IMG/VR virus record: IMGVR_UViG_2778260992_000008
Span: 1-56,203 of that record
Direction: 5' to 3' (one strand)
Length of the DNA: 56,203 bases
Source of the DNA: a virus
Lineage: Duplodnaviria > Heunggongvirae > Uroviricota > Caudoviricetes
Part shown: in pieces, positions 7,669 to 51,355 of the stretch
How the letters are laid out: every line of letters starts with the position of its first letter
Numbering within the stretch: position 1 is the stretch's first letter
Notes under the pieces: model-generated
Told to the model about the DNA's origin: nothing
The model's input: only the letters and a program-made list of their open reading frames with translations
Databases searched by the model: none
Program-made: the position numbers and the translations under genes

Positions 7669-7975
7669 TTGCTTTTCTCCTATGGTTAAAATGAACGCGC
7701 GGGCGGGTATCCCATTAGCATTAGATAGCAGTGATTGACCGCTTAACAGATCCCGCCGTTGCGTGATATTTGTTTTTCGCTTCGCAGCGACACCGGGTTT
7801 TTAAAGAGCTTTAAGGTATGCGCCTTTTTGTGCTATTCCCTTATCTTTTTTCTTGCATCCTTGCAAGTCTGGCTTTACCTTGTCTGCAAGTTTACAGAAT
7901 GGCATTTACAGGTCAAGACTTGAAAAATACATTTTGTGACTTGCATCAAACTTTTTGGGGCGATAGGGTAGCGAC

Positions 7976-8623
7976 ATGAAAACAAAATGGTATGACTTAG
8001 CAAAACAACTCATGCGGGCGCAAGGTATGAGCCAGGATTCATTGGCGGACCTGATGGGGATCACGAAAGGCGGCTTATCGCACTGGCTGAACGGTCGCCG
8101 TGAGCCAAATCTTAATGATATTGCGCGGATCATGCGGGCGCTTGGTCGTCGGCAGTTTACGGTCACACATGATGGGATGGTTATTGATGATTCACTTTCT
8201 AATACACTGCCGGGAGCGCCACCGCTCGACGTAGGGCGTTATCCGGTGATTGACTGGAAAGACGCAGGAAACTACATGGAAGAAGCAAAACGCGCATCAT
8301 TACCGCACGTTAACACTAGCGTGATTTGTTCGGATGATAGTTATTGGCTGGTTGCAAAAGGTGAATCGATGAACGCGCCGCAAGGATTGAGCATCCCGGC
8401 GGGAACGATGATACTTGTTGATCCACACGCGCCAGCTATTGACGGCAAACTGGTTATAGCCCAATTGGAGGAAGGGCAAACGCCGACGTTTAAACAGTTG
8501 ATTATTGATGGAGGTCAAAGGCTTTTACGCTCGCTTAATCCGTTGTATCCACCAATCCCGCTAAATCCTGAATCAAAAATTATTGGCGTGGTGGTGGACG
8601 CGAAGATCGTAAACCTGCCATAA
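7976..8623 (+). CDS. cI-like repressor, HTH plus S24 LexA-type peptidase domain
   Basis: N-terminal HTH (SQDSLADLMGITKGGLSHWLNGRR); C-terminal GESM Ser and FKQL Lys dyad; divergent from replication genes. Confidence 0.85.
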   Translation: MKTKWYDLAKQLMRAQGMSQDSLADLMGITKGGLSHWLNGRREPNLNDIARIMRALGRRQFTVTHDGMVIDDSLSNTLPGAPPLDVGRYPVIDWKDAGNYMEEAKRASLPHVNTSVICSDDSYWLVAKGESMNAPQGLSIPAGTMILVDPHAPAIDGKLVIAQLEEGQTPTFKQLIIDGGQRLLRSLNPLYPPIPLNPESKIIGVVVDAKIVNLP

Positions 8624-8653: not shown

Positions 8654-8732
8654 GCCCGGAAAACACCAAAACGTAAACCGAAAACGGGTTTTATCATTTG
8701 AATATCAATGAGATAGAAAATATTTTAAAAAA

Positions 8733-8775
8733 GTATACAAAATGGATTGACTCGACATATCACAGGGCGTATATT
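8733..8775 (+). promoter_or_regulatory. sigma70-like early promoter with upstream ACAAAATGG element
   Basis: TTGACT (8747-8752), 17-nt spacer, TATATT (8770-8775); GTATACAAAATGGA immediately upstream. Confidence 0.55.
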
Positions 8776-9098
8776 GCGAATCAAAGGAAGGAAGCAGGAA
8801 ACAAAAAGCACCTTCCAGGCACTTTAAAAATCAGGCTTAACACCTTGTCAACCGTGGAGTAACTCCCCGATGTGGGACCGAAAGCGGCACTGATAACAAG
8901 GCGCATGGGGTGTTTAAAGCGTTACATCCCCCACGAAACCGCACGCAAGGCGACGAGTCAGATCACTTGGATTGAGTGGTGTCACACCGGAAACGGCGAT
9001 GATTGCGGGATTAGTTGAACGATGTTAAGCCATTCTCTTTAACAATCTGGTCGCTACTGAAATGTAGCAAACATGATTTTAACTAAGGAGAAAAGATT

Positions 9099-12807: not shown

Positions 12808-12823
12808 TGTGACATCGTTCACA
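12808..12823. promoter_or_regulatory. perfect CRP-type palindrome TGTGA-N6-TCACA
   Basis: TGTGACATCGTTCACA; lies ~18 nt upstream of a candidate -35 (TTGTCC 12841-12846). Confidence 0.4.
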
Positions 12824-12903
12824 TAAATATACATTTTGTATTGTCCCGCTGTATCCGTTTTGTAAACTGAAGTTAGAAGGTATACAGAACGGAGGGCGGG
12901 AAG

Positions 12904-16677: not shown

Positions 16678-16699
16678 TGTTTACAAAATGGCGTCATTG

Positions 16700-16715
16700 T
16701 GTGATGAAGGTCACA
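16700..16715. promoter_or_regulatory. perfect CRP-type palindrome TGTGA-N6-TCACA
   Basis: TGTGATGAAGGTCACA, ~18 nt upstream of candidate -35 TTGTTC (16733-16738) and -10 TATACT (16755-16760). Confidence 0.4.
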
Positions 16716-16840
16716 TAATGGCGCTTTTTACTTTGTTCGGGTGTATCCATTTTGTATACTGCAATCAAACGAAATGCTCTTTAAAAATCCGGCCCCGCTG
16801 AAATGCGGAAACACATCACCTAACAGAATGAGATCAAATT

Positions 16841-18571: not shown

Positions 18572-18737
18572 AGATCTGCAAATTGATATTCAGCGTGATG
18601 AGCATGATTTAGAAACTGTCAGACAAATCCAGGCTTTTCACATGCGCGAATTGCTCGCATTAAAAGAGCTTGAGAGAAAGTTAGTCCAGGCTATTTCTGA
18701 TCGTAAACAACTGGCGGCGCGTTACGGGGGTAAATAA
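18555..18737 (+). CDS. hypothetical coiled-coil protein (60 aa)
   Basis: ATG 18555 with RBS GGGGTGA; inside track ORF 18522-18737. Confidence 0.4.
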   Translation: MKNEIKDLQIDIQRDEHDLETVRQIQAFHMRELLALKELERKLVQAISDRKQLAARYGGK

Positions 18738-19459
18738 TGAATTTAGAATCCATTCTAAAATTCCACTTCCCCAAATCGCCGCGATTATCAGACGAAAGCC
18801 GGGGCACGTCACCGGATGCGCTTAATACAACGGATGCGCTAACCGCTGCTGGTATGGCGCAATCGCGCGTAGAGCTTGGATATAGCGCTTTTTTAGGAAA
18901 GATGGAACTATCGCAAGCCGAAAAACACAGGGCCGTAGTTTTGCTTACAGAGCGTTTAAGAGCTATGGCAAAAGATTACGAATACGTGATGGAATTAAAT
19001 GAAGAACAACGCAATGATCTTATTATTCTTGTTGCCGTTTTCGCGTTTCGGGATTATTGCCAAAGCGCCGCGACGGAAAAAACTTGTATGGAGTGCGGCG
19101 GATATAAATTTACGTTTGACGACTACGGAGAAAAACACCTTTGCAAAAAATGCAAGGGGCATGGGAAAGTTCGCAATCATTGTAAACAATGCAAGGGGCG
19201 TGGCGAAGTACCGGATAAAGCAGCCAGCGAAGCGGCGGAAATGCCAGTTTTCAAAACGTGCCAGCACTGCGGCGGGCGCGGGTACTCGCGTTTCCCGGTA
19301 GATCTTGTCCGCCAGGCGGTTAATCAGCTTGTTTTCCCGGTAAGCCGATCAACCTGGTGGAAAAAATACCGGGTTTTCTATGAAGACGCCATAGCGGAGC
19401 TATTCAAAGAAGAGGCCCGCGCGGAAAGTGAAATCAAACGAGTGACACGGGGTGATTAA
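18737..19459 (+). CDS. DnaJ-type zinc-finger protein (CxxCxGxG x4), possible late regulator
   Basis: CMECGGYK, CKKCKGHG, CKQCKGRG, CQHCGGRG; downstream of nin/rusA where lambdoid phages often place Q. Confidence 0.4.
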   Translation: MNLESILKFHFPKSPRLSDESRGTSPDALNTTDALTAAGMAQSRVELGYSAFLGKMELSQAEKHRAVVLLTERLRAMAKDYEYVMELNEEQRNDLIILVAVFAFRDYCQSAATEKTCMECGGYKFTFDDYGEKHLCKKCKGHGKVRNHCKQCKGRGEVPDKAASEAAEMPVFKTCQHCGGRGYSRFPVDLVRQAVNQLVFPVSRSTWWKKYRVFYEDAIAELFKEEARAESEIKRVTRGD

Positions 19460-22944: not shown

Positions 22945-22968
22945 AACGTGATCTACCCCGCAAAGTTT

Positions 22969-23008
22969 ACAAAATGGCATTGTTCAGGCAGTGCCATTTT
23001 GTTATAAA
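22969..23008 (+). promoter_or_regulatory. inverted repeat ACAAAATGGCA/TGCCATTTTGT overlapping a sigma70-like promoter
   Basis: 11-nt arms at 22969-22979 and 22992-23002; TTGTTC (22980-22985), 17-nt spacer, TATAAA (23003-23008). Confidence 0.5.
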
Positions 23009-24819: not shown

Positions 24820-24882
24820 CCATAATCGCGCATAAAAAACAAATAGATTAAAATATTTCCTAACAATGCGAAATTGTATTCA

Positions 24883-24905
24883 CCCGGCATCGCGCCGGGT
24901 TTTTT
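24883..24905 (+). terminator. rho-independent terminator upstream of lysis cassette
   Basis: CCCGGC-ATCGC-GCCGGG hairpin followed by TTTTTT. Confidence 0.6.
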
Positions 24906-24925
24906 GCTTTGTTGGAGGTAAATCT

Positions 24926-36915: not shown

Positions 36916-37602
36916 ATGATTATGATTCATGTTCGTACCGGACAATTTGAAATTAAGGTTGATGGTCACGCATATATATTTAATCCATCCTTTGCAGCTA
37001 TGGCGCGAATCGGTGATGATTCCGAACTGGTGCGCTACTTTGCCATTGTTCATGGTGGAAGGTATCCGAAAATCTTCCCTATCGATCCAGACCTTCGCAA
37101 ACGGGTTTTAGCGCGGTGTTATGGTGAACTGGTGCAGACGGCTATTCACATTCTGAAATCATGCGCAGAAAGCGAAATAGGGCCGCTGGTGGGCGAGTGT
37201 AGATTTACTCCGGCGGGCAAATTACGGTTGCGCCCTGGCTTGCTGCCAACTCAGGACGTCATCACGCTGGCGCAACATTGCATGTACCACGGTTTAATCG
37301 GTGACATCCCCGGTAACAAACAACAAACTGATAAGCAGGAAGGGGAATATAAATCAACGTTCGATGTTCTTGATTACGTTTATTCCGCCGTTGCTCATCT
37401 TGGACTATCTGAATCAGAGGCGTGGGCCATGACCATGACCGGATATAGGGCCGCTGTACGCGCTAAAACGCCGCCAGAAGCGAAAAACGAGAAAAGACGA
37501 CCAGATGCCGCCATAGATAAAAAGGCTTATGACGATGGGATGCAGGCCGCAAGAAAGGCACTGGAAAGAATGAAAAAATTAAAACAGAAAAAAGCCCGGT
37601 AG
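36916..37602 (+). CDS. tail assembly chaperone (putative)
   Basis: Position between major tail and tape-measure genes; ATG 36916 (track ORF begins 36883 inside the hairpin). Confidence 0.4.
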   Translation: MIMIHVRTGQFEIKVDGHAYIFNPSFAAMARIGDDSELVRYFAIVHGGRYPKIFPIDPDLRKRVLARCYGELVQTAIHILKSCAESEIGPLVGECRFTPAGKLRLRPGLLPTQDVITLAQHCMYHGLIGDIPGNKQQTDKQEGEYKSTFDVLDYVYSAVAHLGLSESEAWAMTMTGYRAAVRAKTPPEAKNEKRRPDAAIDKKAYDDGMQAARKALERMKKLKQKKAR

Positions 37603-37614
37603 TTCCGGGCTTTT
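37593..37614. terminator. bidirectional hairpin terminator
   Basis: AGCCCGG-TAGTT-CCGGGCT with T-runs on both strands; sits between convergent genes. Confidence 0.55.
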
Positions 37615-37616
37615 GT

Positions 37617-38228
37617 TTAGTTCCAGTGGCAAGCATTTTTCACTTTGTTGATATGTTTTTCTAAGCCTTCGATGTTGAATGTTGCTTTTTCGATATAGCC
37701 CGCTTCCGGCAATGTTTCGATAATGAATTGTTTCTCGTTAAGCATTTTTTTAATCATCGGGATGGCTTTTTTGCCGTTCCATAATCCCAGGGCTTTATAG
37801 TTAGTTGCCCGTTGCCATTCTGCTTTCACCGCTTTATGTTCCCCGATCCGGTAGGTAACTTGGGTGGTATCGCCAGCATCCGCAATCATGTTATGCCAGG
37901 CTACAAACATTTTTGTTGTATTGGCTTTGCATTCGATAACTAATACCGGTTTATTTTTCTCTTTTGCTTTCAGTGCCGGGAAATCATCAAGCTGACCGTT
38001 AAATTTTACCGCTTTGACATGTAGCTGTACATTGGGTGTATCGTGCATATCGTCCTTACCTTCCCACACGGCCCACTGTTTCCCAATGTTATCCCGTTCC
38101 ATTTCTTGATGTTTTTCAGCTATTTCTTTTTCAAATTGTTTAATATTTTCAAGGCTTTTTGCTTGTTGTTCGCAACCAACCAGCCCAACCAGCGCCGCCA
38201 TTATTGCCACTTTCGCTAACCGTTTCAT
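37617..38228 (-). CDS. lipoprotein (accessory gene, opposite strand, inside tail module)
   Basis: Signal peptide plus lipobox MKRLAKVAIMAALVGLVGC; ATG 38228 with GGGG RBS; own promoter and terminator. Confidence 0.6.
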   Translation of the reverse strand: MKRLAKVAIMAALVGLVGCEQQAKSLENIKQFEKEIAEKHQEMERDNIGKQWAVWEGKDDMHDTPNVQLHVKAVKFNGQLDDFPALKAKEKNKPVLVIECKANTTKMFVAWHNMIADAGDTTQVTYRIGEHKAVKAEWQRATNYKALGLWNGKKAIPMIKKMLNEKQFIIETLPEAGYIEKATFNIEGLEKHINKVKNACHWN

Positions 38229-38276
38229 AAAACACCCCGTTTGCCTTGAATTACTAACCACTTCCTATAGCTTCTT

Positions 38277-38316
38277 TATACAAAATGGAGTCGTTAAAGC
38301 AAATCCATTTTGTATA
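38277..38316. promoter_or_regulatory. perfect inverted repeat TATACAAAATGGA-N14-TCCATTTTGTATA with divergent promoter elements
   Basis: 13-nt arms at 38277-38289 and 38304-38316; TATAAA-like hexamers at both ends, one per strand. Confidence 0.55.
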
Positions 38317-38354
38317 AAATAGTTACACAGATCACAAAAACGGAGATCAACGCT

Positions 38355-41237: not shown

Positions 41238-41242
41238 AATAA

Positions 41243-41270
41243 CCCCCGGCGAAAGCTGGGGGTTTTCTTT
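41243..41270. terminator. bidirectional hairpin terminator after tape measure gene
   Basis: CCCCCGGC-GAAA-GCTGGGGG followed by TTTTCTTT; T-rich on the opposite strand too. Confidence 0.6.
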
Positions 41271-41448
41271 ATTCAACTTCGTCATTTTTAAATTCGTTGT
41301 TTACATAAAGCTGTAATGCGCTTATCAGTTCGGCGGCTTGCTTTTTGTCTATGACGATTAATTCGCAGTCACTTTCAAGCCATAATCTTTCGTCATATTC
41401 AATGCTAAGATTAATCCGCCGACAACCTTCCGTTTCATGAATAATCAT
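41269..41448 (-). CDS. small acidic protein (59 aa)
   Basis: MIIHETEGCRRINLSIEYDERLWLESDCELIVIDKKQAAELISALQLYVNNEFKNDEVE; RBS GGGGGAAATA; ends at the bidirectional terminator. Confidence 0.35.
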   Translation of the reverse strand: MIIHETEGCRRINLSIEYDERLWLESDCELIVIDKKQAAELISALQLYVNNEFKNDEVE

Positions 41449-41539
41449 TATTTCCCCCTATAATCGACCATTCCGCGCAATATATCCCCTTCCGAAAATT
41501 ACCAACCAAATATTCCAGATCTCCCGCCATGTAAATTTA

Positions 41540-41689
41540 TCATCTTCCATATCTCACCCCATCGCGCTTATAAGGCTTGTTATCAGCAAACGGGATTAAC
41601 GCATCGTTTGCCACCTGGCGATTAAACCAATCTTTCAGGACAACCAGGGAAAACCGGATGCCGTAGCTATGTAATTCGTGCCATTTCAT
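41540..41689 (-). CDS. small hypothetical protein (49 aa)
   Basis: ATG overlaps stop of upstream 84-aa gene (ATGA). Confidence 0.25.
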   Translation of the reverse strand: MKWHELHSYGIRFSLVVLKDWFNRQVANDALIPFADNKPYKRDGVRYGR

Positions 41690-41940
41690 TTATGACACCC
41701 CCGCACGCCGCATAATTCATTGTATTTATGATGCTCAACAATCAACCAAACTTTTAGATCCTGGCTGTAAAGCCGCCAATCAGGGTTGATATCGAATTTA
41801 AAACCATAACCATCTCGTAACTTTTTGGGGTGGGCTTCTTTATTTAGGAAAGCATTTAATAAAGCCTTACCCTTTTTGATGATCCGGTCCTGCGCGTTTT
41901 TTTGTGCTTTCAAATTTTTATCAATCGCTACCAGTTTCAT
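41686..41940 (-). CDS. hypothetical basic protein (84 aa)
   Basis: ORF in track; second gene of a tightly packed minus-strand cassette. Confidence 0.45.
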   Translation of the reverse strand: MKLVAIDKNLKAQKNAQDRIIKKGKALLNAFLNKEAHPKKLRDGYGFKFDINPDWRLYSQDLKVWLIVEHHKYNELCGVRGCHK

Positions 41941-41958
41941 AGCCCACCCCCATCATCC

Positions 41959-42126
41959 TTAGTTGACCGCTTTCAGGTAAAAATCCCGGTATTCGTTTTC
42001 CTTCACGTTCATGTAGAATTGGCCCATTTTAAATGCATCGTCGAAGCCTTTAACGATCGCCACTTCCACTTGTTCGAATGCGTCGTTAAGCATCACGACC
42101 GCGTAGTGTTTATCGTTGCGTTTCAT
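41959..42126 (-). CDS. small hypothetical protein (55 aa)
   Basis: ATG 42126 preceded by AAGGAGG; track ORF 41959-42201 begins further upstream. Confidence 0.4.
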   Translation of the reverse strand: MKRNDKHYAVVMLNDAFEQVEVAIVKGFDDAFKMGQFYMNVKENEYRDFYLKAVN

Positions 42127-42295
42127 CTTGGGCCTCCTTTGTTGGTACTGCTTTTCTTCTTGCTTTCTGTATACATCTTGTTGCGTCCTGTGTGAAGCCA
42201 TTTTGTAAACTGGTTATAATTCTTGTGATGAAGTTCTCATTTTTCGCGTAGAAGCGCGTAAAGATGTACACAAAATGTAACTTATAGGGGGAATT

Positions 42296-42933: not shown

Positions 42934-42940
42934 AATAACA

Positions 42941-42961
42941 CCCCGCCGAAGCGGGGTTTTT
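42941..42961. terminator. bidirectional hairpin terminator
   Basis: CCCCGC-CGAA-GCGGGG followed by TTTTTCG; between convergent plus and minus genes. Confidence 0.6.
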
Positions 42962-43195: not shown

Positions 43196-43444
43196 CTATA
43201 AGTTATCACGCAGATAATTAACGCCCTTGTCAGTGACGAATGAATGATTAACCTGGTTTTCATCCGTCATAATAATGAATAACTTTTCCTGTAAGTATTT
43301 TGCTTTTGGGTACAGCGTTAAACAGACCTGATACAGTATCCCGCGCTCAATCAGCAAATCAATAAATTCGTGCTCATGATAACCGATGAGACGGGCGGCC
43401 TGTTTCAACGTGTACACATAATCACCGTGATTGCGCCGCCCCAT
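43196..43444 (-). CDS. hypothetical protein (82 aa), possibly DNA-binding
   Basis: ORF in track; YTLKQAARLIGYHEHEFIDLLIERGIL has HTH-like character. Confidence 0.4.
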   Translation of the reverse strand: MGRRNHGDYVYTLKQAARLIGYHEHEFIDLLIERGILYQVCLTLYPKAKYLQEKLFIIMTDENQVNHSFVTDKGVNYLRDNL

Positions 43445-43452
43445 GTTGCCGC

Positions 43453-43806
43453 CTATTTATCAAAGCAACTTAAATTATCGATACAGAAGTCTTTAGCAGC
43501 ATTTTCGTATTCGCGTTTTGCTTCAGGATCGTCAGCCGGGAAGCCTTTTGCGTGGATTTCACCAGGGCAAGACTGATCCATAGAGTCTGCAAATTCAACA
43601 TTGACGTTAAAGTTAATATCTTTCGGGTTCATATCTTCCACCTTCTCGGCTATTTGTACCGGAGTTATTTTGAATTCCCTGGCGCGCCCGAAGAAGCGAA
43701 CAAGTTTTTCTCCTTCCTCGACTGCCATTTCGTAACTGTCATGTAAGCCGTAACCTTCCCAATCCTTACTGCCTGCCATCCATACATCGAGACGGTATTT
43801 TTGCAT
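43453..43806 (-). CDS. hypothetical acidic protein (117 aa)
   Basis: ATG 43806 four nt after upstream stop; track ORF extends to 43860. Confidence 0.4.
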   Translation of the reverse strand: MQKYRLDVWMAGSKDWEGYGLHDSYEMAVEEGEKLVRFFGRAREFKITPVQIAEKVEDMNPKDINFNVNVEFADSMDQSCPGEIHAKGFPADDPEAKREYENAAKDFCIDNLSCFDK

Positions 43807-43807
43807 T

Positions 43808-43975
43808 TTACTGATCCCCGCTTTTAATCGGTTTAATCCGGTAGCCCAGGACGCGATCATCTTTTTCCGATAGGTCGAGGGCCGTTTCTAGGGCGTCGCC
43901 AGGGTTATCGAATTCAGCCTCGATATCACGCCCGTTACTCATGAATAAGGTCAGTCGCCATAGTTTATCGTTCAT
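43808..43975 (-). CDS. small hypothetical acidic protein (55 aa)
   Basis: MNDKLWRLTLFMSNGRDIEAEFDNPGDALETALDLSEKDDRVLGYRIKPIKSGDQ; RBS AAGGGCGCGGG; first gene downstream of minus-strand promoter. Confidence 0.35.
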   Translation of the reverse strand: MNDKLWRLTLFMSNGRDIEAEFDNPGDALETALDLSEKDDRVLGYRIKPIKSGDQ

Positions 43976-44023
43976 CCCGCGCCCTTTTGTGCCATTTTGT
44001 TAACTGTGCTTCCGTTTGAGTAA

Positions 44024-44061
44024 AATATACATATTGTACAAACCGCGATCAATCCATTTTG
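44024..44061 (-). promoter_or_regulatory. sigma70-like promoter for minus-strand cassette, with upstream CAAAATGGA element
   Basis: On minus strand: CCAAAATGGA-TTGATC-N17-TATATT; same layout as the promoter at 8733-8775. Confidence 0.5.
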
Positions 44062-44106
44062 GTATGATTTGGCGTGACGCAGATCACAAAATCAGAAGGT
44101 GAGAAA

Positions 44107-50011: not shown

Positions 50012-50040
50012 GGGGCCGACTTGTTCGGCCTCAGTTTTAT
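50012..50040 (+). terminator. weak hairpin terminator after J
   Basis: GGCCGA-CTTGT-TCGGCC followed by TCAGTTTTA. Confidence 0.35.
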
Positions 50041-50367: not shown

Positions 50368-50960
50368 TGGCAACCTTCGGAGCTTATTTGAGATTAAGTA
50401 ACGGGAATATTTTCGTTACACCGGAAGCGACGCCGCTTTGCTTATATAAACGGGTGGCATTAACATCATCGAATCAAACCGTCGCCGTGCCACCCGGAAA
50501 ACCCGTGATGGTATTTGTGAAAAGCACTACCGCCGCCGCTGTATTAGCTTATAGAAATAGTTCATCGACTTTACTGATCGGTGCTGGTTCGGGGTATGCG
50601 TATATTTTCAGTATTTTCCCGCCATCGCTGCCGAAATGGGGAATGGCTATCTGGAACGCTTCCGGGGAACTGGTGCTAACTAATGAATCAAGAATATTAA
50701 CAGACCTTGTAACCGTGGGGACAGCAGGATCAAGTGGCGGGATTTATATAGACCAGACGTTATCCGGTTCTTATGCTATTTGCCCCCAATTGTTAGGGGC
50801 GCTCGTTGGACAGGGTAGTGCCTCCATTTATGCGGCGGCTTATTACAACGGAAGCACGACCAGAATTTACGGTATCCAGGCGGGTAGCGTATATGCACCA
50901 ACTGGCTATATCAACCACGGGAACGCTATCACCGCCATTAAAACCGACGCCTATGATTAA
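50367..50960 (+). CDS. hypothetical tail-associated protein (MATFG paralog 2)
   Basis: 197 aa; ATGA overlap; begins MATFGAYL and shares WNASGE with paralog 1. Confidence 0.45.
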   Translation: MATFGAYLRLSNGNIFVTPEATPLCLYKRVALTSSNQTVAVPPGKPVMVFVKSTTAAAVLAYRNSSSTLLIGAGSGYAYIFSIFPPSLPKWGMAIWNASGELVLTNESRILTDLVTVGTAGSSGGIYIDQTLSGSYAICPQLLGALVGQGSASIYAAAYYNGSTTRIYGIQAGSVYAPTGYINHGNAITAIKTDAYD

Positions 50961-51196
50961 TTCAGTTCCGGGCAATCCGTTTTCTTGAAGTGGTCAACGC
51001 TTACCCATTGAAAATTAAACGGATACCCGGCCTTAACCATTTTATGACCGCCAACATCCGCGACACCGAAGACTGCAACCGCATATTCATTACCGCCAGT
51101 TTGATAAATTGCCGTGCATTCACGTTTAGGCATGTCAGCGCAACCAACCAGACCAGCAACCATTGCAACGATAGCGATATTTTTTAAGCCTTTCAT
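50957..51196 (-). CDS. Cor-like lipoprotein (candidate superinfection exclusion)
   Basis: Signal plus lipobox MKGLKNIAIVAMVAGLVGC; ATG 51196 with RBS GGAGGG; between J and side tail fibre, where cor sits in lambdoid phages. Confidence 0.45.
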   Translation of the reverse strand: MKGLKNIAIVAMVAGLVGCADMPKRECTAIYQTGGNEYAVAVFGVADVGGHKMVKAGYPFNFQWVSVDHFKKTDCPELN

Positions 51197-51355
51197 TGTC
51201 TTACCCTCCGTTGTTTCGTTGGTTGTAGTATCCACAAACTGTATTTTCTCAACATTGATATAAATCAACAAATACATTTTGTATAAACCAAAAATGTAAC
51301 ATAGATCACAAAATGGTAGAATTATTCCGTTAATTAACATAATGGAGTCATTGCA

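Follow-up and report, generated by a model that had tools for sequence, protein, structure and literature searches.

Predicted divergent-promoter modules with CRP-type palindromes at the moron junctions of an mEp021-group phage tail operon

In human faecal samples, phages of the mEp021 group (mEpimmI) reportedly match lambdoid phages in frequency; a published account of the group's genomes makes no mention of promoters, operators or late control (PMC11893012). We analyzed one such phage as a stretch of 56 203 nucleotides (IMG/VR record IMGVR_UViG_2778260992_000008; hereafter the window), in which a set of short elements recurs upstream of the genes for the tape measure protein (TMP), L and the side tail fibre (stf). 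A preliminary description had taken these for activator-dependent late promoters. The question is what the repeated elements do inside a tail operon, and which genes, on which strand, they would serve.

The recurrence itself is borne out: the same elements stand in the same order before TMP, L and stf, and all are present at the positions given earlier (Table 1). The exact 11-mer AGATCACAAAA occurs at three places only in the window, namely these three junctions; allowing up to one mismatch yields five matches against 1.18 expected, a count reached in 0 of 100 shuffles. The composite CATTTTG-N20-40-CACAAAA was found three times (0.04 expected), with CATTTTG-N20-25-AGATCACAAAA spacing at all three copies. 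Alignment with the region upstream of gene M, which had been suggested, adds a fourth, degenerate copy (CCATTTTGTAAACTGGTTATAAT followed by TGTGATGAAGTTCTCA), and all four regions are conserved and free of indels across 30-40 distinct relatives (~40 mEp021-group phages). The shared 11-mer is in part peculiar to this phage, because most relatives read AGATCACATTT at TMP, where the conserved core is GATCACA only. A good forward -35 is indeed missing: TMP offers TCGTTA (3/6 matches), and L, M and stf offer none. At TMP and M the -10-like hexamers are well conserved. Conservation is moderate at L, where variants CATGAT, TGTGAT and CGCGAT occur and TATGAT is destroyed, as CGCGAT or TGTGAT, in 3 of ~34 distinct related sequences. 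The stf TATAAA is not conserved, with relatives also reading TGTAAG, TGCGCG or TATGCG. Using CCATTTTGTA as a -35 (TTGTAA or TTGTAT) left no consistent -10 at 16-18 bp downstream at TMP, L or stf and was rejected; the separate TTGTTA-18-TAAAAT promoter upstream of L is an exception. Sequences, terminators and gene contents in Table 1 are direct observations, as are the enrichments, conservation pattern and fixed spacing given in the text. Predicted starts follow the rule of the last base of the -10 plus 7. A generic consensus scan found two promoters only, the reverse one at L and the forward one further upstream of L; the remaining promoters are hand-chosen -10 hexamers backed by conservation, and all start positions depend on that choice.

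Table 1. Features of the junction modules and of the control regions compared with them (strand left empty where none was assigned).
Feature	Position	Strand	Details
Immunity-region palindrome copy	7935-7950		TGTGA-CTTGCA-TCAAA; -60.5 of pL-like promoter, +3.5 of repressor-gene promoter
Early palindrome copy	12808-12823		perfect, TGTGA-CATCGT-TCACA; -59.5 of TTGTCC-16-TAAACT
Early palindrome copy	16700-16715		perfect, TGTGA-TGAAGG-TCACA; -59.5 of TTGTTC-16-TATACT, the promoter before nutR2
Early/late-boundary palindrome copy	22947-22962		CGTGA-TCTACC-CCGCA; -60.5 of TTGTTC-17-TGtTATAAA
Candidate Q-dependent late promoter and strong terminator	24849-24906	+	-10 TAAAAT; just before holin gene
Bidirectional terminator	37590-37614		closes preceding tail gene and reverse lipoprotein gene
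VasI-like lipoprotein moron	37617-38228	-	MKRLAKVAIMAALVGLVGC...; Pfam PF11319, E = 7.9e-17
Lipoprotein-moron reverse promoter	38275-38302	-	-35 TTGCTT 38302-38297, -10 TATAAA 38280-38275; conserved in relatives
TMP upstream elements	CCATTTTG 38305-38312; TATAAA 38313-38318; AGATCACAAAA 38329-38339
TMP forward core	38305-38318	+	CCATTTTG + TATAAA, -10-like; predicted start ~38325; only -35 candidate weak, TCGTTA
TMP CRP-type palindrome	38321-38336		AGTTA-CACAGA-TCACA; right half is AGATCACA of the preliminary description
Terminator	41241-41264	+
ParE-like toxin gene	41686-41940		in reverse cassette at gene M junction
Toxin-antitoxin-type cassette reverse promoter	42168-42196	-	TTCACA-17-TATACA; predicted start 42161; hexamers conserved in relatives
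Gene M forward core	42198-42220	+	CCATTTTG-TAAACT then TATAAT; both hexamers >=90% conserved, 39 distinct relatives
Gene M CRP-type palindrome	42224-42239		TGTGA-TGAAGT-TCTCA; left half conserved, centre variable
Terminator	42940-42957	both
Second, canonical forward promoter before L	43997-44026	+	TTGTTA-18-TAAAAT; overlaps reverse -10; consensus scan
Ant-like cassette reverse promoter	44024-44052	-	TTGATC-17-TATATT; consensus scan; invariant in relatives; predicted start 44017
L upstream elements	CCATTTTG 44054-44061; TATGAT 44063-44068; AGATCACAAAA 44081-44091
L forward core	44054-44068	+	CCATTTTG-g-TATGAT; canonical TGn extended -10
L CRP-type palindrome	44073-44088		CGTGA-CGCAGA-TCACA; alignment of relatives
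Terminator	50012-50032
Small lipoprotein moron, stf junction	50957-51196	-	MKGLKNIAIVAMVAGLVGC...
stf-junction reverse lipoprotein promoter	51227-51232	-	predicted -10 GATACT; predicted start 51220
FNR-consensus box	51255-51268		TTGAT-ATAA-ATCAA (TTGATATAAATCAA); half-sites conserved, centre variable
stf upstream elements	ACATTTTG 51274-51281; TATAAA 51282-51287; AGATCACAAAA 51303-51313
stf CRP-type palindrome	51295-51310		TGTAA-CATAGA-TCACA; minus strand = CCATTTTGTGATCT, the CCATTTTG motif fused to a half-site
stf forward extended -10	51314-51322	+	TGgTAGAAT; invariant in relatives

Judged by sequence, AGATCACAAAA forms the right-hand half of a palindrome, TGTGA-N6-TCACA, which is the consensus of the host cAMP receptor protein (CRP); what had been described as a TGTGA-like half-site plus a separate AGATCACAAAA is one 16-bp CRP-type palindrome instead. 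The CRP motif is N3-TGTGA-N6-TCACA-N3, a two-fold symmetric 22-bp site centred at -61.5 in class I and at -41.5 in class II promoters (PMC10199772). Over the 10 core positions, the L, stf and M copies carry one mismatch each and TMP carries two (its right half is perfect), while four copies in the early region have 0, 0, 1 and 3. All six window sites with at most one mismatch in these positions are intergenic and adjoin CATTTTG, as do all eight intergenic palindromes, and GTGA-N6-TCAC with up to one mismatch gives 31 matches against 15.6 expected. Among 18-39 distinct relatives per junction, half-sites are constrained, the central six bases are free and the palindrome-promoter spacing has no indels. 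The 12808 copy has a different centre, TTGCGA, in mEp021. At L, 18 distinct relatives keep GTGA and TCACA with essentially no change around centres such as CGCAGA, TGGCGA, TTGAGA, TTTAGA and CACAGA; at TMP the right half GATCACA is at least 90% conserved, the left half is weak (AGTTA or AGAGA) and the centre varies. The flank reads TCACAAAA in this phage, compared with TCACATTT in the CRP consensus, and the TMP copy of most relatives, (TC)TAGATCACATTT, matches the consensus half together with its flank, past the pentamer.

The second recurrent element is less specific. Over the whole window and both strands, CCATTTTG(T) occurs 15-19 times against 3.9 expected (four- to five-fold enrichment), at early and late intergenic sites and mostly abutting a -10-like hexamer, including those of the pL-like, nutR2-proximal and other early promoters. 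The motif varies among relatives (CCGTTTTG, CCATATTG, CCATTTCG), which suits an A/T-rich spacer or UP-like element better than a specific site. On the opposite strand the 8-mer reads CAAAATGG and occupies -37 to -44 relative to the reverse promoter, where a UP-like contact of alpha-CTD would fall. A role as half-site of the palindrome-binding protein was rejected, since the distance to the palindrome ranges from overlapping up to 18 nt and leaves no rigid composite site. Mycobacteriophage stoperators and start-associated sequences offer a likeness, a short asymmetric motif, here (C/A)CATTTTGT, in 15-19 intergenic copies; in contrast to them, the motif here faces either way with respect to genes, most copies are fused to the palindrome or to a -10 hexamer, and substitutions are tolerated in relatives.

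The genes on the reverse strand give these elements another context. The reverse cassettes encode a VasI-like lipoprotein, a ParE-like toxin, an Ant-like protein, a KilAC-like protein and small lipoproteins; they carry reverse promoters and flanking terminators, and their content varies both relative to mEp021 and among IMG/VR relatives. By these sequence features the reverse genes are typical prophage-expressed morons. In the mEp021 group, superinfection exclusion is mediated by lipoproteins of the structural cluster (PMC11893012). The tail-site palindromes are centred at -60.5 (TMP), -63.5 (L, ~2-3 bp out of phase), -70.5 (M) and -82.5 (stf) of predicted starts of conserved reverse-strand promoters, and four more lie ~-60 of early-region promoters, so the full series relative to predicted starts is -60.5, -59.5, -59.5, -60.5, -60.5, -63.5, -70.5 and -82.5, each promoter having a downstream gene. 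Six of the eight copies also sit at +3.5 to +6.5 of the -10-like hexamer of a divergent promoter, again by predicted starts. Because the predicted divergent forward and reverse starts are always 56-58 bp (~57 bp) apart, geometry cannot separate -60 of one promoter from +4 of the other in these six cases.

Each junction adds detail. At TMP, CATTTTGTATAAAATAGA is at least 90% conserved in 34 distinct relatives, and the lipoprotein-moron promoter (predicted start 38268) has CCATTTTG at the end of its 16-bp spacer. Homology to many relatives does not extend beyond the intergenic island from 38245/38254 to 38322/38336; the flanking reverse gene and tape-measure 5' end differ. The gene M palindrome lies at +5.5 or +14.5 of its two forward candidates. 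The second forward promoter before L is conserved in relatives, with variants TTGACT and TACAAT. At stf two unrelated downstream contexts keep the FNR box 22 nt away from GATACT or GATATT, and the centre of the box then falls at -41.5 of the predicted start. The site shows the FNR class II arrangement of TTGAT-N4-ATCAA near -41.5 at a promoter without a -35; the CRP-type centre is 41 bp further upstream. At the position of the stf moron, relatives carry three unrelated secreted or lipoprotein genes that abut the same control region, and three relatives lack both the reverse gene and the boxes while retaining the forward -10, kept as a TAAAAT variant in relatives without CRP- and FNR-type boxes. 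Two others (L041 and L029) keep the boxes although the reverse gene is gone. The pattern partially supports a tie between the stf boxes and the reverse gene.

How the tail genes themselves are expressed may not depend on these sites. The window encodes a Q-like protein (PF03589), and a -10 with a strong terminator precedes the lysis genes as in the pR'-qut-tR' unit of lambda Q antitermination, which can account for tail-gene expression through terminators. Differing from the tail sites, this 24849-24906 unit contains neither CCATTTTG nor GATCACA. Because it shares no motif with them, we rejected the tail sites as extra Q-loading sites, and because such a candidate motif-free Q-type promoter/terminator lies separately, read-through by antiterminated polymerase is a realistic route to the tail genes. 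None of the ten ORFs scanned encodes a late activator, the PF03589 Q-type antiterminator being the sole late regulator identified.

We hypothesize that the modules are divergent-promoter units with host CRP/FNR-type sites, in which the palindrome would act as upstream activator site for the morons, a reading whose chances we put at about even. From the sequence pattern we infer where transcription starts, which protein binds and in which direction it regulates. A module would sit wherever a reverse-strand moron cassette interrupts the tail operon of this mEp021-group phage. It would combine a conserved sigma-70 promoter on the reverse strand, having both -35 and -10 and driving the moron, a forward -10-only core ~57 bp away, start to start (CCATTTTG plus TAnnnT, which would be a genome-wide signature), and the 16-bp TGTGA-N6-TCACA palindrome that would bind CRP. 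Through the palindrome, CRP would chiefly activate the moron promoters and four early-region promoters from an upstream class I/class III position, and at stf it would act with an FNR-type regulator on the TTGAT-N4-ATCAA box at -41.5. Since the promoters stand back to back, a bound dimer covering +1 to +15 of the forward tail promoter would damp rather than activate it, and the bulk of late tail-gene expression would come from the separate Q-type promoter, reading through terminators. An extended version is tentative and rather doubtful: a bidirectional switch sensing host physiology, in 4-7 copies in the one phage genome, in which a single CRP-cAMP dimer, joined by FNR at one junction, would both switch on the accessory cassette and shut the neighbouring internal tail promoter, favour the leftward early over the repressor-gene promoter in the immunity region, and in which the modules would double as cassette-swapping joints. 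Example cassettes are an exclusion lipoprotein and a toxin-antitoxin pair.

The palindromes may be operators of a phage regulator (a Rep021-type CI, the Cro-like HTH protein first in the leftward operon, or another) which at ~+4 would silence the internal forward promoters of TMP, M, L and the repressor gene, for example in the lysogen; we regard this as possible, if improbable. CI/Cro operators, those of 434 and P22 among them, also have the look of a 16-bp palindrome whose outer bases are conserved while its centre varies, and the six copies near +4 suit a repressor. The copy between the repressor gene and the pL-like promoter differs from the others in having a conserved centre. It may overlap a CI operator or Cro site, because this centre is conserved too. 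The same repressor accompanies the L module in 35/35 complete E. coli genomes and occurs in all recovered IMG/VR relatives, and no heteroimmune relative keeping the module was found in either set; because module and repressor always co-occur, covariation cannot tell a host from a phage-encoded binder. Other observations disagree with an operator. None of these palindromes overlaps the strong pR-like promoter (TTGACT-17-TATATT, 8747-8775), and the spacer of that promoter varies among relatives; the pL-like core has a 3-mismatch version only, and the CTTGCA/TGCAAG repeats of the immunity region look like the true CI operators, so the palindrome was rejected as CI operator of the main early promoters. 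The 16700 and stf copies break the +4 rule, no gene follows two of the '+4' promoters (12819-, 22957-), and the perfect FNR box alongside speaks for host factors of the CRP/FNR family.

In the preliminary reading these would be forward, activator-dependent late tail promoters, with CCATTTTG and/or TGTGA/AGATCACAAAA binding a phage late activator in place of the missing -35. This reading retains its shared architecture and its hexamers without usable -35, which are conserved at TMP and M; most CCATTTTG copies directly adjoin the -10, and the regions lie where forward tail genes resume after terminators and could use restart promoters. Late promoters without -35 are known from P2 Ogr/P4 Delta (sites at -55), P1 Lpa (box at -22) and Mu C, and they too pair -10-like hexamers with a recurrent sequence nearby. 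Unlike there, the palindrome here lies downstream of the -10, at ~+4.5 to +6.5, where an activator cannot work and a repressor or roadblock could; nor are the elements tail-specific, late-specific or confined to one strand, since they occur at early and reverse-strand promoters too. An activator site upstream of or overlapping the -35, at late promoters only, is not the pattern seen in the window. With the stf TATAAA not conserved, the L hexamer lost in some relatives, CCATTTTG varying in a way that fits a specific site less well, and a Q-type regulator with its own motif-free unit in place of a late-activator gene among the ten ORFs, we consider this reading quite unlikely. It is very unlikely that the islands are mainly recombination joints for moron swapping with incidental or vestigial promoter- and CRP-like features: the confinement of TMP homology to the island, the three unrelated lipoprotein genes at one stf control region and the different cassette content of mEp021 would fit, but conservation is patterned (hexamers and half-sites kept, spacers variable) and not uniform as neutral hitch-hiking would give, and spacing is exactly kept. 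Swapping is, moreover, compatible with CRP-type divergent promoters and does not exclude them. A palindrome acting in RNA, as a 5'-leader hairpin for translation, stability or termination of tail transcripts, is highly improbable. It would fall in the forward leader, and the 16700 copy is the tip of a very stable, genuine terminator hairpin (dG -24.8, z -8.4), whereas the tail leaders fold like shuffles (z -0.16, +0.11, -0.21) with half-sites unpaired, a 4-5 bp stem with a 6-nt loop is marginal, and covariation is absent (the base after GTGA is T or C and its would-be partner stays A). On this shuffle-level folding, and with no Rfam family matched in the window, we rejected an RNA element at the tail sites.

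Host CRP/FNR-type divergent promoters would have familiar counterparts. E. coli class I/class III CRP promoters likewise have a 22-bp TGTGA-N6-TCACA site with one strong and one weaker half, centred near -60, -70 or -82 of a sigma-70 promoter (here predicted), with A/T-rich DNA between site and -35. The lac P1 promoter has CRP at -61.5, and ansB has tandem FNR at -41.5 plus upstream CRP, resembling the stf FNR box at -41.5 with its CRP-type site 41 bp further upstream. The putative sites here differ in lying on a phage genome, in being predicted 1-2 bp off -61.5 (L at -63.5) and in overlapping the start of a divergent promoter. Morons of temperate phages such as lambda lom and bor and those of HK97/HK022 are also accessory genes between late genes, with their own promoter, a flanking terminator and functions useful to the lysogen (exclusion lipoproteins, toxin-antitoxin), and the Fur-controlled promoter of stx1 in the late region is a precedent for host-factor control. 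What sets this phage apart is that its tail operon contains four cassettes, all reverse, and that copies of one divergent-promoter module link each of them to the tail gene that follows, with CRP and FNR as the predicted host factors. In the literature searched, nothing relevant was found on CRP control of prophage morons or exclusion genes.

For genome scanning, the case indicates that what looks like a 'late promoter consensus' can turn out to be the reverse face of divergent moron promoters. If the proposed regulation is true, the tail operon would consist of successive units split by insulated, host-controlled cassettes, not one lambda-like late transcript. Prophage cargo, including exclusion lipoproteins, would then be tied to host carbon and oxygen status via CRP and FNR, and superinfection exclusion would be predicted to depend on cAMP and anaerobiosis.

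The arrangement that the preliminary description had seen upstream of the tape measure (TMP), gene L and side tail fibre (stf) genes is real and conserved. All three sites are present as described; the pattern CATTTTG-N20-40-CACAAAA occurs three times against 0.04 expected, and AGATCACAAAA has three exact matches, or five with at most one mismatch (1.18 expected). The region upstream of gene M holds one more copy, the fourth, in which TGTGATGAAGTTCTCA comes after CCATTTTGTAAACTGGTTATAAT. Among 52 related IMG/VR loci, retrieved with the gene L protein, all four aligned upstream regions are conserved islands without indels, and at TMP homology to many relatives is limited to the island, stopping at or beside a palindrome. 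The proposed label of activator-dependent late tail promoters is not the best fit. What recurs at these places is a divergent-promoter module that has copies throughout the genome.

The window represents a temperate siphovirus that belongs to the coliphage group mEp021 (mEpimmI) and has patches of 80–86% identity to mEp013, mEp010, mEp021 and MagusPhagus; the closest prophage is in E. coli RM9245. Gene order is as in mEp021: a leftward replication operon, a LexA-family repressor, an N-like early region, a Q-like protein, lysis genes, then head and tail genes. A genome paper on the group (PMC11893012) covers the nut sites, the repressor and the exclusion lipoproteins and makes no mention of operators or of late promoters.

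The recurring elements are not confined to the tail, as CCATTTTG and CATTTTGT are present in 15 and 19 copies (3.9 expected each) on both strands from 5 kb to 51 kb, mostly intergenic. In most copies the 8-mer directly abuts a TAnnn(T/A) hexamer (e.g. TATAAA, TAAACT, TATACT, TATATT), with a TTGnnC hexamer 16–17 bp 5' of it in several. Because copies adjoin promoter hexamers on both strands genome-wide, the 8-mer is regarded as a general promoter signature of the phage. It recurs at matching places in mEp021 and varies in relatives (CCGTTTTG, CCATATTG, CCATTTCG), a tolerance that fits a specific protein's recognition site less well than an A/T-rich spacer, an extended -10 or a UP-like element.

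Together, AGATCACAAAA and the TGTGA-like half-site noted beside it form a single 16-bp palindrome, TGTGA-N6-TCACA, the CRP motif (PMC10199772). Read on the minus strand, the stf copy is CCATTTTGTGATCT; the two elements described as different are here one motif in inverted orientation. Scanning the window for the core gave 23 sites with at most two mismatches, and all six with at most one are intergenic and adjoin the CATTTTG motif. Conservation in relatives has the footprint expected of dimer binding: before L, the GTGA and TCACA ends never change, whereas the middle varies (CGCAGA, TGGCGA, TTGAGA, TTTAGA, CACAGA, others). Two perfect early copies have wholly different centres in mEp021. Most relatives carry (TC)TAGATCACATTT at TMP, continuing the CRP consensus past the pentamer; since the window's AAAA flank there is a minority variant, the exact 11-mer first noted owes part of its form to chance in this genome. 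An RNA role for the tail-site palindromes was rejected. In the early region, a 15-bp hairpin resembling a terminator (dG -24.8, z -8.4) has the perfect palindrome TGTGATGAAGGTCACA at its tip; downstream follow a promoter and then boxA and a boxB-like element. These two elements are nutR2 as published, and it appears to have a promoter of its own.

Coordinates and elements of the features discussed
Feature	Position	Elements	Remark
CTTGCA/TGCAAG repeats	7852-7950	CTTGCATCCTTGCAAG 7852-7867	more copies 7886-7891, 7940-7945
Palindromes	7935, 12808, 16700, 42224, 44073, 51295		at most one mismatch
Palindrome, TMP	38321		two mismatches
Palindrome	22947		three mismatches
LexA-family repressor	7976-8623
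pL-like promoter		TTGACC-16-TAAACT	8-mer
pR-like promoter pair	8725-8782	TTGACT 8747-8752, TATATT 8770-8775
Early promoter	12841-12868	TTGTCC-16-TAAACT	8-mer
Hairpin and nutR2 region	16690-16808
Promoter before nutR2	16733-16760	TTGTTC-16-TATACT	boxA, boxB downstream
boxA	16776-16784	GCTCTTTAA	nutR2
boxB-like	16795-16808	CCGCTGAAATGCGG	nutR2
Q-like protein	18737-19459		PF03589
Promoter	22980-23008	TTGTTC-17-TATAAA	8-mer
Candidate pR'-tR' unit	24849-24906	TAAAAT 24849-24854	terminator 24882-24906; holin start 24926
TMP reverse promoter		TTGCTT-16-TATAAA	minus; predicted, conserved; 8-mer, TTGnnC-type -35
M reverse promoter		TTCACA-17-TATACA	minus; predicted, conserved
L reverse promoter		TTGATC-17-TATATT	minus; predicted, conserved
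ParE-like cassette	41269-42126		toxin 41686-41940; likely antitoxin 41959-42126
M leader hairpin	42245-42258	CGCGTAGAAGCGCG
KilAC/Ant-like cassette	43196-43975		KilAC/Ant-like protein 43196-43444
Overlapping promoters, L	43997-44029	TTGTTA-18-TAAAAT, TTGATC-17-TATATT	forward, reverse
FNR box, stf	51255-51268	TTGATATAAATCAA
stf leader palindrome	51329-51338	GTTAATTAAC

Every tail site lies between a reverse-strand cassette of accessory genes (morons) and the following forward tail gene. Cassette products are a VasI-like lipoprotein, a ParE-like toxin with small partner ORFs, a KilAC/Ant-like protein with partners, and a small lipoprotein; a terminator closes each forward unit, two being bidirectional. 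The ParE-like and KilAC/Ant-like cassettes differ in content from those of mEp021 at corresponding junctions, and at the stf junction three mutually unrelated genes for secreted proteins or lipoproteins occur among relatives. Superinfection-exclusion proteins of the group are lipoproteins from the structural-gene cluster (PMC11893012). The reverse sigma-70 promoters at TMP, M and L are akin to the strong pR-like promoter TTGACT-17-TATATT, and in all of these CAAAATGG lies directly 5' of the -35, at -37 to -44.

With starts predicted seven bases past the -10, palindrome centres fall at -60.5 of the pL-like promoter, -59.5, -59.5 and -60.5 of three further early-region promoters, and -60.5 (TMP), -70.5 (M) and -63.5 (L) of the reverse promoters. 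The stf palindrome is centred at -82.5 of the lipoprotein gene's predicted reverse promoter, which has a perfect FNR consensus box (predicted -41.5) in place of a -35; the half-sites of the box are kept in relatives, its centre is variable, and the 22 nt from box to hexamer are retained across two unrelated downstream sequences. These predicted positions are those of class I, II and III CRP/FNR-dependent promoters. A further palindrome in the stf leader, GTTAATTAAC, is the same in every relative, even those without CRP- or FNR-type boxes, and resembles the ArcA box core.

Divergent predicted starts are 56–58 bp apart in six modules, which also places the palindromes at +3.5 to +6.5 relative to forward cores that have only a -10: those of rep, TMP, M and L, and two antisense cores that seem to have no gene. 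Geometry by itself does not separate an upstream site serving the far promoter from a +4 relation to the near one, but three lines favour the former: the adjacent FNR box at stf; the fit of the upstream-site reading to 8/8 copies, all with genes at the target promoter, against six for the +4 rule, two of them without a gene; and three stf relatives lacking reverse gene and boxes that retain the forward extended -10, TA(G/A)AAT. Against it, two relatives retain the stf boxes after losing the reverse gene. The palindrome's likeliest identity is a host CRP site that would serve the reverse-strand morons and overlap the predicted forward start.

A phage-encoded binder is possible. CI-type repressor operators share the palindromes' general form, the centre is conserved in the immunity-region copy, and module and repressor are perfectly linked, the L-junction module and Rep021-type repressor occurring in an identical set of 35 of 5426 complete E. 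coli genomes, one copy each. Speaking against CI itself, the palindrome is absent from the pR-like promoter pair, and the stretch of the immunity region that separates the pL-like promoter from the repressor gene has CTTGCA/TGCAAG repeats instead; these are the likely CI/Cro operators. The pR-like promoter stands back to back with a minus-strand CCATTTTG-TATACT core (predicted starts 57 bp apart), which would yield RNA antisense to the repressor gene. The islands may also serve as recombination joints alongside regulation, although a joint alone leaves their patterned conservation unexplained.

Tail genes are probably expressed by read-through from a candidate Q-dependent late promoter. The holin gene is directly preceded by a -10 (TAAAAT), with a strong hairpin and T-run terminator within 30 nt, both conserved in mEp021; with the Q-like protein they make up the expected pR'-tR' unit, in which none of the tail-site motifs was found. 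Antiterminated polymerase from it could pass the tail terminators, and more distant gene L relatives have a hairpin alone, with no promoter, before L. The forward cores may still fire. Their hexamers are at least 90% conserved at TMP and M, and L has an additional canonical forward promoter further 5', but these do not make up a late class of their own. At L, this promoter and the reverse one have overlapping -10 regions and predicted starts 16 bp apart, and their occupancy on DNA would be mutually exclusive. The small conserved hairpin in the M leader, with stem changes in relatives all wobble-compatible and the loop's 3' half variable, could be boxB-like or a processing signal.

The tail sites would be a new example of something already known, morons whose promoters are under host-factor control, and this reading can be tested directly. 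CI/Cro operators have so far been undescribed for the mEp021 group, and the mEp021-type family appears genetically cohesive and homoimmune.
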